Below are positions 236-6,900 of a stretch of 9,753 nucleotides of DNA, piece by piece. The number at the start of each line of letters is the position of its first letter. Positions within the stretch are counted from its first letter, which is position 1. The translations under genes were made by a program, and so were the position numbers. Source of the DNA: a virus (Duplodnaviria > Heunggongvirae > Uroviricota > Caudoviricetes); the IMG/VR virus record IMGVR_UViG_2734482541_000013; one strand, 5' to 3'. A model generated the notes under the pieces. It saw nothing but the letters and a program-made list of their open reading frames with translations. It made no database searches and was not told where the DNA came from.

Positions 236-1318
236 TCATTTTCTCTGGCTGATCTTTACCGGATAACCATCCCGAAGATCAATTAAGTGCTCCGGTTCAG
301 AAGCAAACCATGCATAAGATCCCCACGCCAATTCTGGTATTGCCTTTTTAAAAGGCAGAGCACTTCTGTCCATAAATGCCGTAAGGAATGCAAGATTTTT
401 CTCGCTGAACCCAGCGTCAATAGCCAAATGAGTGAGAGTAACTTTTCGTTCCCTGTTTATAGGCCCATCTGTCGCAACTACTTCAGTGAAAACTACAAGC
501 ATGTCCGAACCCGTTCGGTCCTCTCCCAAATCAATCAAAATAATATCTGGAAGTGCTTTTGAGGCATCAATATTCAGCCCCAATGCTTTTGCCAATACAT
601 CATCCTGAGCAACAACTTTATTCCCGGATTCAGACAACCAGAGCACAGTTGGATTCTTAAGAAAATTAGGAGCAAAAACTTCGATGACGGCCTTAGCTAT
701 TGTACTTGACGGGCCCGGAGCTAAAGTTCTCTTCTCTCCATTTGGGAAAGTGACGACTACGGCATCAGCAGCAATCACTGCCCCTGATTTCAATAAACGC
801 AACCTAGCAAGAGCGGCTTTGTTCAAATGATTTTCTTGCCAGGAACTTATTGCACTCAGCAGCGAATCTCCTTCAAGCCCGGCATCAAAGAGTGCTGCAA
901 AAGAGCGATTCAAACTGTAACGAGGACGAGAGGATGTGGTGGGTATACCTTTACGCTCAACAATTGCATTGCAAGGTATTAGGCCATTTTTTATAGTTTC
1001 ATCACGTATTGGCTCACGCGTATTTTCCGCATACCATGCATCAGCAGGCCTTATCTTTTGTTTAGAGAAAGTCATCTTTACCCAGCTTTCTCTGGACGCA
1101 TCATCAGTAAGAGCAGCCTGCGAATCTCCCATACTTACAACCTGGCTGGGCCTTATCCATCGCCCCAGCCCCTCAACCGCACCAGCATAAAACATGACAA
1201 AAATTGTTTTTGCAGCTATTTCCCGAATTAAATATCCACGATTCTCAGTCCCTTCAGGGAAAATTAATTGTAATCTTTCCCGGATAACATTCAATGGGGG
1301 AACAACAGGCAGATTCAT
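236..1318 (-). CDS. Putative restriction endonuclease or other effector partnered with the upstream methyltransferase (Type II R-M-like cassette); family unverified
   Basis: 360-aa ORF. Its ATG (1316-1318) overlaps the methyltransferase stop (1315-1317) as ATGA, implying translational coupling. Sampled 60-nt lines are about 35-43% GC versus about 52% in neighbouring phage genes. I could not place a PD-(D/E)xK motif with confidence; resemblance to BsuBI/PstI-family endonucleases is a tentative recollection only. Confidence 0.5.
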   Translation of the reverse strand: MNLPVVPPLNVIRERLQLIFPEGTENRGYLIREIAAKTIFVMFYAGAVEGLGRWIRPSQVVSMGDSQAALTDDASRESWVKMTFSKQKIRPADAWYAENTREPIRDETIKNGLIPCNAIVERKGIPTTSSRPRYSLNRSFAALFDAGLEGDSLLSAISSWQENHLNKAALARLRLLKSGAVIAADAVVVTFPNGEKRTLAPGPSSTIAKAVIEVFAPNFLKNPTVLWLSESGNKVVAQDDVLAKALGLNIDASKALPDIILIDLGEDRTGSDMLVVFTEVVATDGPINRERKVTLTHLAIDAGFSEKNLAFLTAFMDRSALPFKKAIPELAWGSYAWFASEPEHLIDLRDGYPVKISQRK

Positions 1319-3147
1319 GCAATCATCACTCCATAGAAACCAGCGATAGTTCTCTCAATAATCCGTCTGTGGACGCCAGCATCAATTAACGATTGAATCT
1401 CCATCACCTGCTCCAGAGAAGGCAACGGGATTGAATTCAATTCATAGGCCGAAACAGCAACACTTCCGCTTATACACCTGAACGCCCGATCGACAACATG
1501 CGAATTAAGTAGCATATCAATAACATCAGGGCGAACCGCAGAGAACAATCCGTTTGAATATACAATATTAATATGGTTTTCAACTACTACGCCACCAGTT
1601 TCATCTATAAATCCCTGAGGTAAAATTGCCGCTAAAATCCTTCTGTCCTGTTCCTTCGATGTTGTCCGCTGAACAAGCACACATTCAGATTTTGTCACAA
1701 GGAAACCCTGTTGTGGGGTTATATCGATATAGGGAACATGATTTTTTCTGTCTGCACTAAAACGAAAACCAGCTGAAGTTATTGATTCCGCCCAGACTAA
1801 TGGGTAGCTATTTTTTCCTTTCGTCGTACGCAACTGCGACTTAAATCGATTCCAGACTAACTGACCTGTAGAGACTGAGTATCCCAGATCAGCTAAACGC
1901 GTAGACATCTGTTTTAATACATTAAGAAAACAGGCATCATCTTTAACGCGTGGCAAAAGCCACGTTGCTCCACCTTTTTCTATATCAACATTACCTATTT
2001 TCTCAATTTTTGCTTTGTTCAACCCCTTAGGGACAAGTGAGGATACCTGGGCCCGAACTTTATGTTCTCCCGCCTTGAATGCTGTCAACATTGTTTCCTG
2101 GAGAACATCGTCAAAGACCCCATCCCTGTCAGTGACGAAATCAAGGGCATACGGAGTAGTTTTTTCGGTCAAAAGGGTTCGCAGCGCGGTGAAATACTGC
2201 CCACCAAGAAAAGAAGTTGGCGTAAGAAATGCAATAACTCCTGTTTTCTCTTTAACCATGCGAACAGCTAAGTCGGTGAACAATCCATATAGATTTGCAT
2301 GACCAAATAACGAACGAGAATATTTTTCTCTCGTTTTAATATCGAGAGTGACACGTCCGTAAGGCGGATTCCCTACCACAAGATCATAACCAGAAAATTT
2401 ATCTTGCTGAAGCGCATCAGCAACAATAATTGTATCTTCAGGCAATCTACGTTTTACCTTTACACATAGTGGCATTAGTACAGATTCGAGCAATACCAAA
2501 CTCATCCAAGCCGCAAATGGATCGATCTCTATCCCCTTTAAACGACGACTGATTCTCCTCAACATCCATTCAGGGGAAGACCCCTTGTCTTTTTTTAACA
2601 TTCGAATGGCTACTGGTGCCAAAAATGCACCGCCACCACACGCAGGATCAATAACCGATGCATGAGAAAAATCAACACCAGACTTTTCAGCCAGGTCCAA
2701 GAGACGCGCTACCAAAGGTGGGGGGGTATAGTAAGCCCCCAATTCCGAACGGTAAGCGGATGGCAGCATTACCGTATAAATTGACCCAATCAGATATCCA
2801 GCGTCCTCCGCCGGAAATTGAGCAATAAGCTCACCTGTTCGTTCAGCGAGCTCGCGTGCATCACATGGAATGTCTTCTATGTAAACAGTGTGCGGTACTG
2901 CCCTCATTTTAATGCTGCTTTTTTGCTTTTTTGCAAGGGTATCCCAATATGCAGCTACGATGCTGAAGCAGTATGAGCGGGCATGCATCAACCTTGACTG
3001 CCCGGTTTTGTAATTGCCCGCATAACCTTTGGCCATGGCTTTACAAGTTTGATATCTTTCCAGATTAGAAAACTCATTATCTGTAAAAAAATCAAAATGT
3101 TGCACATTCATAATGTAAAATCCTAATGTATCAAACATGCGGGCCAT
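1315..3147 (-). CDS. N6-adenine DNA methyltransferase, gamma-class (Eco57I/TaqI-like), with a C-terminal target-recognition region
   Basis: 610-aa ORF. Motif X-like GAYYTP at residues 137-142; SAM-binding motif I DPACGGGAF at residues 167-175 (nt 2626-2649); catalytic motif IV VVGNPPYG with NPPY at residues 260-263 (nt 2359-2370). Motif order X-I-IV followed by about 340 aa is typical of gamma-class amino-methyltransferases with a C-terminal TRD. Confidence 0.85.
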   Translation of the reverse strand: MARMFDTLGFYIMNVQHFDFFTDNEFSNLERYQTCKAMAKGYAGNYKTGQSRLMHARSYCFSIVAAYWDTLAKKQKSSIKMRAVPHTVYIEDIPCDARELAERTGELIAQFPAEDAGYLIGSIYTVMLPSAYRSELGAYYTPPPLVARLLDLAEKSGVDFSHASVIDPACGGGAFLAPVAIRMLKKDKGSSPEWMLRRISRRLKGIEIDPFAAWMSLVLLESVLMPLCVKVKRRLPEDTIIVADALQQDKFSGYDLVVGNPPYGRVTLDIKTREKYSRSLFGHANLYGLFTDLAVRMVKEKTGVIAFLTPTSFLGGQYFTALRTLLTEKTTPYALDFVTDRDGVFDDVLQETMLTAFKAGEHKVRAQVSSLVPKGLNKAKIEKIGNVDIEKGGATWLLPRVKDDACFLNVLKQMSTRLADLGYSVSTGQLVWNRFKSQLRTTKGKNSYPLVWAESITSAGFRFSADRKNHVPYIDITPQQGFLVTKSECVLVQRTTSKEQDRRILAAILPQGFIDETGGVVVENHINIVYSNGLFSAVRPDVIDMLLNSHVVDRAFRCISGSVAVSAYELNSIPLPSLEQVMEIQSLIDAGVHRRIIERTIAGFYGVMIA

Positions 3148-4960: not shown

Positions 4961-5556
4961 TTACTTCACAACTCCCGGAAAGCTGACATTTGAACGCCAG
5001 CTATCCCAGTTAAACGTCACCCACCGACAACCGTTCATGGTCATGCGGTCCATAATCCTCTCACCAAGAAGCGTGCTCATTGCGGCATGATTCAGGTTTG
5101 TTAACATCCCGACACTGCACAGTGATGCTGTCCGGCGATCAATTATCTGGTGCAATACCACCTGCTCGTTTTTCGTCTCCCGCTGAATGCCTATTTCATC
5201 CAGGACCAGCAAATCAACCCCGCAAAGCTCCTGTAAAAATTTTTCACCGGATTTGCCGTTGTCGTAGCTGTCATGCAACACGCTCATGACATCAGACTCG
5301 GTGACGATAATCACGCTGCGCCCCTTCGCCATCAGCCGGTTACCCATCGCCGCTGCAAGGTGATTTTTCCCGGTGCCGGTTTTACCGCTGAACACAAAAT
5401 TCGTGCACCCGGTCATCAGTTCGTCAGCTATGGATTTGGCCTGGCTCAGCGCGTATTTTTGCCCGTCGTTCTGCACCTGATAATTCGCAAACGAGCATTT
5501 GCTGTGCAGAGGCTGGATGCCCGAACGATTCAGGATTTTTTCCACCCGCAACTGGC
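4961..5556 (-). CDS. DnaC-like replicative helicase loader (AAA+ ATPase, IstB/DnaC family); N-terminus lost in the assembly gap
   Basis: Walker A GKTGTGKNHL, Walker B LLVLDEIG, and DnaC-type C-terminal signature WVTFNWDSWRS. The six-frame track fuses it to the upstream gene only because the N-run is a multiple of 3. Confidence 0.85.
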
Positions 5557-5847
5557 NNNNNNNNNNNNNNNNNNNNNNNNNNNNNNNNNNNNNNNNNNNN
5601 NNNNNNNNNNNNNNNNNNNNNNNNNNNNNNNNNNNNNNNNNNNNNNNNNNNNNNNNNNNNNNNNNNNNNNNNNNNNNNNNNNNNNNNNNNNNNNNNNNNN
5701 NNNNNNNNNNNNNNNNNNNNNNNNNNNNNNNNNNNNNNNNNNNNNNNNNNNNNNNNNNNNNNNNNNNNNNNNNNNNNNNNNNNNNNNNNNNNNNNNNNNN
5801 NNNNNNNNNNNNNNNNNNNNNNNNNNNNNNNNNNNNNNNNNNNNNNN
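5557..5847. other. Assembly gap (291 N)
   Basis: Uninterrupted run of n characters from 5557 to 5847. Confidence 0.99.
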
Positions 5848-6829
5848 GGAGCAACCAGGGGTTTTCAAAATTCCGGTCCGGCCCAAAAAACGTCGTCGCT
5901 CGCTGAACAAATTCCGTTCCCGCTTTCCCGGTCGCCGCCAGGTATCTCGCGTAACGCCTCACACCATCCAGCATGGTCTCTGGTGGCACCCCCTCGCGCA
6001 ATCTGGCCTTCCAGGCACTGAATGCGGATTTCTTCGGGTTTGCCCCGGCACGCAACGGGTATTCCCGCCAGACCTGTTCGAACACATCCGGATAATCCAC
6101 TCGTCCCACAGGCTGCCCGGTGTTTTCCGGGGCTACCCGATCGGCTTCCCGCTGAATGGCGGAATCGGCTTCAGGCTGCTGCAGTTGGAGTGATTGCTCC
6201 GGCCTTGCGGTCATCACCTGCTGCACAGCGCCCGAATCGGCTTTCAGCGCATACGCTGAATCGGCTTCCGGTGTCGAGCCTGCTGGCTGACCAGGATTGA
6301 CGGTCTGAACATCCCCTGCCTGGTTCGTGGCGTTTTTTACGCCATGGACCATAGTGTTTTGATCTTCTTTATCTGTATCTTTATCTGTATCTGTCGTGAC
6401 TCGTCGTGACATGTGCGTGACATTTCGTGACGCGCCGTGACAATCGCCATTTTGTTCCCGCTTTCTTTCCCTCTCTCGCTGCGCCCTCTTGCGCTCTGCA
6501 GGAGATTTTGCGGTTTGCGAAATATTGCCGTTGTCCTCTTTAAGCACCTGGCGTTTTTCCCATCCAGTGATTAAATCACCATCAAGTACCCGCCCCTGCA
6601 TCGTCTGCAAAATTGAATCAATTACCTCTTCTGTCACGTCGAGCGCACTTGCCAAATCTTCTGTCGTGACATCAATGTGACCTCGCGTGACATTTCGTGA
6701 CGCGCTCACCAGGAGGTGGATATACACTGCCATCACTGTTGCAATTGGCTGCCCTGACACCCTGGCAATTGTTCGCCACTTAGGGTCATTTGGCATGTCA
6801 TGCCATAATCTGAGCCAGGCGTTAGCCAT
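5848..6829 (-). CDS. Phage replication initiation protein, lambda O-like / YdaU-like; C-terminus lost in the assembly gap
   Basis: ATG at 6827-6829 with RBS AGAGGTGA upstream (a GTG at 6835 is an alternative start). Position immediately upstream of the DnaC-like gene, as in O-P / ydaU-ydaV arrangements. Acidic/basic low-complexity linker and internal iteron-like repeats. Confidence 0.7.
6366..6441. repeat. Iteron-like array 1: tandem 12-mer TCTTTATCTGTA x2, then five CGTGAC repeats at 10-11 bp phasing
   Basis: 12-mers at 6366-6377 and 6378-6389. CGTGAC at 6395, 6405, 6416, 6426 and 6436. An AT-rich stretch lies immediately upstream. Located inside the O-like coding sequence. Confidence 0.6.
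6633..6705. repeat. Iteron-like array 2: four (C/T)GTGAC repeats at 10-11 bp phasing plus one inverted copy
   Basis: CGTGAC at 6665, 6686 and 6696; TGTGAC at 6676; inverted GTCACG at 6633-6638. The 21-mer GCGTGACATTTCGTGACGCGC at 6685-6705 is identical to 6415-6435 in array 1. Confidence 0.6.
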
Positions 6830-6900
6830 ACTCACCTCTTCTGATACCGAATCTTTTTACTCACGAGTTGCCGGGAGCGATTCGATATGGCTATTGTCAG

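Follow-up and report, generated by a model that had tools for sequence, protein, structure and literature searches.

The 9,753-nucleotide stretch of DNA analyzed here (the window, from IMG/VR record IMGVR_UViG_2734482541_000013 of a Caudoviricetes virus) contains two arrays of a short direct repeat inside a replication initiator gene, and these arrays very probably constitute the iteron replication origin of a lambdoid-type prophage, bound and activated by the protein in whose gene they lie. The best reading of the sequence is that array 1 (the linker array), together with an adjoining AT-rich element, would form the origin core, and that array 2 would be a conserved cluster of accessory sites. 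A candidate origin had been proposed here in a first-pass annotation of the window, and the comparative analysis strengthens this proposal, the repeat cores being conserved beyond the needs of the protein, recurring as two arrays at matching gene positions in 39 of 48 related loci (genomes of 33-68% guanine plus cytosine, GC) and changing together.

Because the gene lies on the minus strand, the 6-bp core reads GTCACG on the gene strand and CGTGAC on the plus strand. Array 1 (6395-6441, minus strand; gene nucleotides 389-435) is formed by five cores, with CGTGAC starting at 6395, 6405, 6416, 6426, and 6436 (spacing of 10, 11, 10, and 10 bp), and codes for approximately amino acids 130-145 (HGASRNVTHMSRRVTT), between the N-terminal domain (N-domain) and the C-terminal domain of the protein. 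Array 2 (6665-6701, minus strand; gene nucleotides 129-165) codes for ASRNVTRGHIDVT (amino acids 43-55), inside the N-terminal DNA-binding domain. For this array, four copies with the same phasing had been described; the phasing holds (11, 10, and 10 bp), although three copies are exact (CGTGAC at 6665, 6686, and 6696) and the remaining one, at 6676-6681, is a degenerate TGTGAC with one mismatch (GTCACA on the gene strand). Both arrays share the 21-mer GCGTGACATTTCGTGACGCGC, a two-core unit whose identical copies (6415-6435 and 6685-6705) are 270 bp apart, as the first-pass annotation had stated, and the peptide SRNVT that it had noticed is indeed coded twice in the minus-strand protein, at amino acids 44-48 and 134-138. 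In addition, a single inverted copy of the core (6633-6638, plus strand; CGTGAC on the gene strand, coding for D-V-T) follows array 2 after approximately 27 bp in the direction of the gene, with about 220 bp of ordinary sequence separating it from array 1 on the plus strand. In related loci this copy appears as GTGAC in most of those with GTCAC-type cores and is missing from several, its conservation being weaker than that of the arrays. The window contains nine exact CGTGAC/GTCACG sites against 3.2 expected, a number reached by none of 200 shuffles, and all nine are confined to 6395-6701, within 301 bp (probability of random placement, ~7e-12).

A search with the N-terminal 156 amino acids of the initiator retrieves 677 proteins (E ≤ 1e-3, 58-75% identity) from Enterobacteria to Pseudomonas, Bordetella, Chromobacterium, and beyond, members of the family being present also in Aeromonas and Acidobacteria. 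Related loci were collected by scanning one genome per species with the peptides MPNDPKW and RTI[AS]R[IVA]S[GK]QP, both outside the arrays, which gave 51 loci, 48 of them classified for core type and 41 with a linker array. A lack of DNA-level conservation of the repeats in related initiator genes would have refuted the first-pass proposal, and the opposite was observed: in 24 loci (GC of 35-68%), GTCAC is found at gene nucleotides 129, 139, 149, and 160 and again at ~387-430, and the di-core unit GTCACGAAATGTCACG, coding for SRNVT, is found again in both arrays in many taxa. The duplicated array, which had been considered unusual, is the rule in this initiator family. The site profile obtained from 190 pooled sites corresponds to GTCAC followed by G (87-88%), with uninformative flanks. 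Phage Evi, with a complete genome of 40 kb, has 26 GTCACG/CGTGAC sites, of which 9 are concentrated in a 320-bp segment of the initiator gene, and segments of that length elsewhere in this genome contain at most two, there being no third cluster. Initiator sequences ~99-100% identical to the Escherichia coli type were also found in a 404-bp contig labeled Staphylococcus saprophyticus (P0031) and in a contig of a metagenome-assembled genome labeled Collinsella (L059); both are probably assembly contamination.

Codon entropy at amino-acid-invariant columns, calculated for the 24 GTCAC-type loci, separates the constraint on the DNA from that on the protein. Outside the array, most columns have an entropy of 0.8-2.4 bits (the values for two Asp columns being lower) and synonymous sites are largely saturated, with R7 using six codons and P13 four. 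In contrast, the codons of the cores are fixed (V47 GTC, T48 ACG, G50 GGT, H51 CAC, and V54 GTC, each in 23/23, and S44 TCA in 21/23), and the codon of R49, which ends in a spacer position, varies freely among CGA, CGT, CGC, and CGG. The cores are under selection as DNA. Moreover, all three reading frames are used for the hexamer (GCG TCA CGA AAT GTC ACG CGA GGT CAC), and therefore a protein-level repeat cannot explain the arrays, the invariant peptide ASRNVTRGH..VT being a by-product of the DNA constraint. It is then hardly credible that the repeats are only a feature of the protein (an SRNVT-type peptide) or slippage-prone coding DNA of low complexity with no function in cis. Such an explanation would account for the invariance of SRNVT and H..SR.VT at the protein level across the family and for the microsatellite-like variation in the length of the (DK/DT)n segment, but not for a period of 10-11 bp, which is no multiple of 3, for a synonymous freezing restricted to the cores, for the AT-ending codons retained in high-GC hosts, or for cores that switch hexamer in both arrays jointly while the loop peptide changes completely.

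The AT-rich element abuts array 1 and consists of a (GATAMA)n hexamer/12-mer repeat, purine-rich on the gene strand (6363-6394, minus strand), that codes for DTDKDTDK and is a candidate DNA-unwinding element. The order initially described, an AT-rich 12-mer pair and then five CGTGAC copies at 10-11 bp, was recovered independently by Tandem Repeats Finder, which reports the 12-mer TCTTTATCTGTA (2.2 copies at 6366-6392, 100% match) and a period-10 array of 4.9 copies at 6393-6442. On the gene strand, array 1 is followed by GATACAGATAAAGATACAGATAAAGAAGAT, coding for DTDKDTDKED, and the GC fraction drops to 0.38-0.42 around 6320-6419. The same organization is observed in the 41 loci with a linker array, where 80 of the core-to-core spacings are 10 bp and 12 are 11 bp, and the last core is directly followed by a nCAGATAAAGATAAAGA-like stretch in genomes of 33-68% GC. 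The array always precedes an AT-rich stretch of the AGATAAAGATA type, for which AT-ending codons are used also when the GC of the host is high. The mean AT content of the 40 nucleotides after the last core is 67%, compared with 45% for the loci, the gene strand being purine-rich. Inside the stretch, Asp is coded by GAT in 82 of 87 cases, against 408 of 840 elsewhere in the same genes (p = 1e-18), and Thr by ACA or ACT in 38 of 44, against 211 of 628 (p = 4e-12), a use of AT-ending codons that persists in hosts of 58-68% GC. The AT-rich element, the obvious candidate for unwinding, is also kept as DNA.

Twelve bp past the AT-rich element lies an inverted repeat with a 13-bp stem and a 5-nucleotide loop (6321-6351), whose predicted DNA fold has an energy of -10.9 kcal/mol (z of -4.6). 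At the matching place in the 41 related loci, the best inverted-repeat stem exceeds that of control segments (mean of 5.7 compared with 4.8, p = 6e-6). The stems are unrelated in sequence and the loop is often TGAC, TGGC, TGCC, or TAAC; examples located ~50-70 nucleotides past the last linker core are those of L016, L022-L025, L037, L040, and L058. This inverted repeat may be a third element of the origin, a proposal to be taken as a lead and not as a result. Also, on the plus strand, the hairpin followed by TAGTGTTTTG (6321-6361) scores as terminator-like in antisense to the initiator gene, no antisense promoter being identified. In the window as a whole, terminator-like matches are slightly above those of shuffled sequences (4 compared with 2.0 ± 1.4), one of them being this antisense hairpin, and promoter-like matches are no more frequent than in shuffles (2 compared with 1.9 expected).

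When the cores of the two arrays are classified separately, 24 loci are GTCAC in both, 9 are GAACG in both, and 6 are GTAAC in both, with no discordant case among 39 loci; of the rest of the 48, two have just the linker array and seven lack all three core types. The cores of distant homologues read GAACGC (with the N-domain loop GCATCGAACGCAACCGAACGCGGGCGAACGC and the linker CAAACGCAACCGAACGCAACCGAACGC), GTAACGC, or GTAACG, and the loop peptide changes wholly with the core type, from ASRNVTRGH to ASNATERGR or ACNAVKRGE. In L033, of the GTAAC type, the inverted copy is likewise altered, to GTTAC. The arrays differ together, and therefore the simplest explanation is one protein reading both of them. 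In a neighbor-joining tree of the N-domain without the array-coded loop (77 residues), the GTAAC and GAACG types are polyphyletic, appearing in several separate places, which suggests repeated switches of the core, the tree being too crude for counting them. In the Serratia/Pantoea homologues L050 and L057 (L050:4330-4420 and L057:4330-4420), the usual arrays are missing and ACGTAG-like repeats ~10 bp apart are found, the segment coding there for a peptide, YVYYV..VGIS.NPWAR, that resembles a GIY-YIG/T5orf172-type motif. Either a fourth type of core or the insertion of a domain could account for this.

The core type is independent of the type of helicase-loader partner. Downstream of the initiator, the window, L033, and L048 have a DnaC/IstB-like gene, L003-L007, L011, and L042 have a lambda-P-like one, and other loci have genes for unrecognized proteins; in L008 and the plaque-forming phage Evi the initiator has no loader gene at its side, an absence that hints at direct use of the host DnaC-DnaB. 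The only constant companion of the arrays is the N-domain, and they travel with it and not with the loader. This bears on the nature of the binder. Direct repeats of 10-11 bp are not specific to initiators (the parC centromere of plasmid R1 also has them) and the arrays are transcribed, so that the cores might be recognized by the cII-like YdaT, Cro/CI-type regulators, a host factor, a terminase or partition protein, or an mRNA-binding protein. Nonetheless, recognition by any of these is very unlikely, considering that the arrays are always inside the initiator gene and co-vary with N-domain lineages while the downstream partners differ, that no par or terminase genes are nearby, that a period of one core per helical turn indicates duplex DNA, and that the window gives neither an Rfam match nor a DnaA box with at most one mismatch. 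A host-DnaA-assisted model was dropped for this last reason. As for upstream neighbors, these were compared within E. coli only, where all copies examined carry YdaT/YdaS-type genes.

From these sequence patterns we infer the identity of the binder, the unwinding of the AT-rich element, and the origin activity, for which the following course of events is proposed. The winged-helix-like N-terminal domain of the initiator would bind the core GTCACG, and the five direct cores of array 1, one per helical turn, would align several initiators on one face of the DNA, nucleating an oligomer. This complex would melt the adjoining AT-rich, purine-rich AGATAAAGATACAGATAAAGA element, and the C-terminal domain of the initiator would then recruit the host DnaB helicase via the neighboring loader, DnaC-like in the window. 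Also, rightward early transcription from the cro/cII-like (YdaS/YdaT) operon would pass through the site. Two general traits of iteron-type theta origins, multiple short direct repeats selected as DNA and an adjacent AT-rich element, are present.

For array 2, with four cores ~230 bp upstream, the contribution would most likely be to raise the local concentration of initiator or to co-assemble with array 1 by looping or, alternatively, to capture nascent initiator. The distance between the arrays is 219, 227, 229, 231, 247, or 319 bp depending on the taxon, and helical phasing between them was rejected on this basis. A helper role is favored for array 2 because it has no AT-rich neighbor, lies at an unphased and variable distance, and is missing in a few lineages. 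A stronger proposal, possible although somewhat doubtful, is that the origin is bipartite and requires the upstream array in cis as the partner of the linker array, as with crr for the P4 ori, being laid out on ~230 bp of initiator coding DNA. Here the binding sites would be located in the sequence coding for a loop of the same domain, so that each change of specificity (GTCACG, GTAACG, GAACGC) would have rewritten both arrays and the loop peptide, and the family would be a natural series for how an initiator and its origin re-specify. On the other hand, array 2 (or both arrays) might bind the initiator mainly for control, as an autoregulatory roadblock, a titration site, or a handcuffing partner that limits re-initiation, accessory iterons of the handcuffing type being known in incA of P1 and incC of F. 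This is rather unlikely. An array without an AT-rich neighbor of its own, dispensable in some lineages (the two linker-only loci), varying from 4 to 6 copies among E. coli prophages, and at a distance that is not phase-conserved speaks for control, and its retention in 39 of the 41 linker-array loci, in very distant taxa, speaks against it; moreover, the fully frozen synonymous sites of array 2 fit a required cis element equally well.

Several observations weigh against an origin organized in this way. The AT-rich element is short, ~30 bp in the window. Gene conversion between the two arrays, and not selection by a common binder, could explain part of the co-variation, and the tree behind the core switches is crude, being a neighbor-joining tree of 77 residues. 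Array 2 is absent from 9 of the 48 loci (7 of them without the three core types), and therefore it is not universally essential, and given that the inter-array distance is not phase-locked, a rigid looped complex is not favored. Finally, the hits behind the winged-helix assignment are weak (E of at least 0.36), and the protein has no Pfam domain.

The module has a match in 2,311 of 5,426 complete E. coli genomes. When the E. coli copies are aligned, no variation is seen in the GTCACG cores, in contrast to the spacers of 4-5 bp, and the number of GATAMA units also differs between copies. A second group of prophages, with several members per O157:H7 genome, matches only 6365-6840 of the window, at 82-87% identity. 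In these O157-type variants, the N-terminal part and both arrays are joined to another C-terminal domain (annotated as DnaT-like), and the next gene codes for a lambda-P-type protein that replaces the DnaC-like loader. It is at the AT-rich repeat that the DnaC-type and P-type variants have their mosaic joint, with identity starting at ~6365-6372. Moreover, array 2 of the O157-type variants is 21 bp longer, corresponding to exactly two more cores and seven codons (TCHGVSL), and in the AlphaFold2 model of the window protein this 7-residue insertion falls in loop 46-55; its being tolerated suggests a permissive loop. Such changes of copy number by whole units are the behavior of DNA repeats. In E. 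coli SCU-104 (L006:1943-2990), array 1 has a sixth 10-bp unit and RefSeq flags the gene as a frameshifted pseudogene, the coincidence of the extra unit with the frameshift indicating that gain of a repeat unit can inactivate the initiator. On the other hand, the 11 plasmid records that carry the initiator are mostly large replicons or misfiled chromosomes, together with phage-sized circles, and no small sole-replicon plasmid is among them.

The initiator gene (5848-6829, minus strand) starts with an ATG at 6829 and codes for 356 amino acids in intact copies. Its end and the start of the following DnaC-like gene are masked by a run of 291 N bases (5557-5847), and an open reading frame of 624 amino acids is an artifact, since the run fuses the two genes. 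The protein is composed, in this order, of the N-terminal winged-helix-like domain, a basic helix, a linker, and a C-terminal domain ending in ..PD..IPPGFRG. The first-pass annotation called the gene O-like, which is right in that it is a replication initiator gene (phrog_3729, "replication initiation protein," E of 3e-255; "phage replisome organizer" in RefSeq), but not in the sense of the lambda-O family, since the Pfam scan of the protein gives no family at E ≤ 0.01, including Phage_rep_O and Phage_rep_org_N. Weaker PHROG matches are to the replisome-organizer families phrog_4880 (5.5e-6) and phrog_5968 (2e-4), and a sequence-profile search of the PDB with the initiator gave nothing relevant.

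The AlphaFold2 model of amino acids 1-156 has a mean predicted local distance difference test score of 72, being above 85 for most of residues 11-90. It contains helices at 4-14, 16-25, 29-45, 56-63, and 67-77, a loop at 46-55, and a hairpin at 78-88, followed by a basic helix at 110-127 and a disordered linker beyond. According to this model, array 2 would code for the end of helix 29-45 and for loop 46-55, ahead of the helix-turn-helix-plus-wing unit. A Foldseek comparison of the N-domain model with the PDB gives no significant match (best hits with E ≥ 0.36), the non-significant hits being mostly winged helices (CRP/FNR, GntR, MarR, and ArsR), so that winged-helix-like is a description and not an established membership. 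Also, the C-terminal tail ..R.VN..S.PD..IPPGFRG, masked in the window and read at L001:5918-5990, is common to unrelated initiators located beside DnaC-like loaders, including YdaU of the Rac prophage (L002:4920-4977), and weakly resembles the C-terminal end of DnaT.

Downstream of the initiator gene, the window codes for a DnaC/IstB-like AAA+ helicase loader (4961-5556, minus strand) with its 5' part masked, which matches Pfam IstB_IS21 (2.7e-18), its full copy matching NF009043 (1e-151) and DnaC (7e-88). Upstream, genes for YdaT (cII-like) and YdaS (Cro-like) are accompanied by one for a divergent CI-like repressor. With these neighbors, the arrays occupy, in the early rightward operon, the position that O has in lambda, the prophage being of the lambdoid type. 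Further along the same strand, restriction-modification cargo of the early region occupies 236-3147, downstream of the prophage replication genes and DUF1627/DUF977 genes, and comprises a restriction endonuclease of the BsuBI/PstI type (236-1318) and an N6 DNA methylase (1315-3147).

Knowledge of this origin and of its specificity classes would help to predict which co-resident prophages compete for initiators or share them, would help to explain the mosaic joints in lambdoid replication modules, and would yield a compact origin-plus-initiator cassette for vectors. Moreover, the family is a rare clean case in which synonymous recoding can split what a gene does through its protein from what its DNA does in cis, which makes the system, being also widespread, directly testable, and the natural variants with switched cores are material for studies of initiator-site co-evolution. 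A literature search that included the Eru phages, oriJ, and YdaS/YdaT of CP-933P found no account of the origin of this initiator family, which is no proof that none exists; the replication modules of Eru1-3, Eru8, and Eru11 have proteins different from the present initiator.

An iteron origin within its initiator gene is of a well-known kind and not surprising in principle. The features that vary here are the short core repeated once per helical turn, the second array in the sequence coding for the DNA-binding domain, and the existence of several natural specificity classes. A comparison with Rac-like prophages had been recommended, and for the Rac prophage of E. coli K-12 (ydaS-ydaT-ydaU-ydaV, oriJ) the likeness holds for the gene order, that is, a cro-like YdaS, a cII-like YdaT, the initiator, and a DnaC-like loader, and for the common C-terminal tail of the initiators. 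However, the identity of the initiator with YdaU was ruled out, since the BLASTP alignment is limited to the 19 residues at the end; the DUF1376 N-domain of YdaU is not related to the present one, and YdaU lacks GTCACG arrays, having internal repeats of its own (AAnCAGATGTTCAA, four copies). These 14-mers, found midway along ydaU (L002:4472-4563) with spacing of 33, 33, and 12, are candidate iterons of the Rac oriJ.

In the Bacillus phage SPP1, oriL is located inside gene 38, which codes for the replisome organizer G38P, and a second site, oriR, is ~13 kb away (PMC6316719). As in the present case, repeats in direct orientation occur together with an AT-rich unwinding element in the gene of a "replisome organizer," and there are two separate clusters of repeats, both bound by the initiator in SPP1 and presumably by a single protein here. 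Nevertheless, the second SPP1 cluster has its own AT-rich region, whereas array 2 is only 230 bp off, in the same gene, and has none. The hosts also differ, being Firmicutes for SPP1 and Proteobacteria and Acidobacteria for the present family, whose initiator has no Pfam match to Phage_rep_org_N.

A pair of separated clusters of the same short iteron, both bound by the same initiator, is also found in P4 (ori and crr), P1 (oriR and incA), and F (oriS and incC). The likeness is that one cluster stands beside the unwinding region and the other is accessory. The difference is that their clusters flank the rep gene or lie kilobases away, with roles (required enhancer, copy control) known experimentally, whereas here both clusters overlap the coding sequence of the initiator itself.

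Finally, oriLambda is located within gene O and consists of four 18-bp iterons and a 38-bp AT-rich region (PMC3349717, PMC6022878). The present system departs from it in an initiator that is outside the Phage_rep_O family, in 6-bp asymmetric direct repeats every 10-11 bp instead of 18-bp palindromes ~20 or more bp apart, in a second array 230 bp upstream, in the region coding for the DNA-binding domain, and in a loader that is DnaC-like in the window. However, the lambdoid layout recognized in the first-pass annotation does match oriLambda: the putative origin lies in the initiator gene, where the N-domain, which binds DNA, meets the C-domain, which binds the loader, and on the coding strand the iterons precede an A-rich/AT-rich stretch, as in array 1 and 6363-6394 and in the 41 loci. 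It also lies in the rightward early operon, after cro/cII-type genes. Moreover, in both systems the N-domain and the iterons would form a single exchangeable specificity module, with C-domains that fit different loaders, one of the present variants being paired with a lambda-P-type protein.

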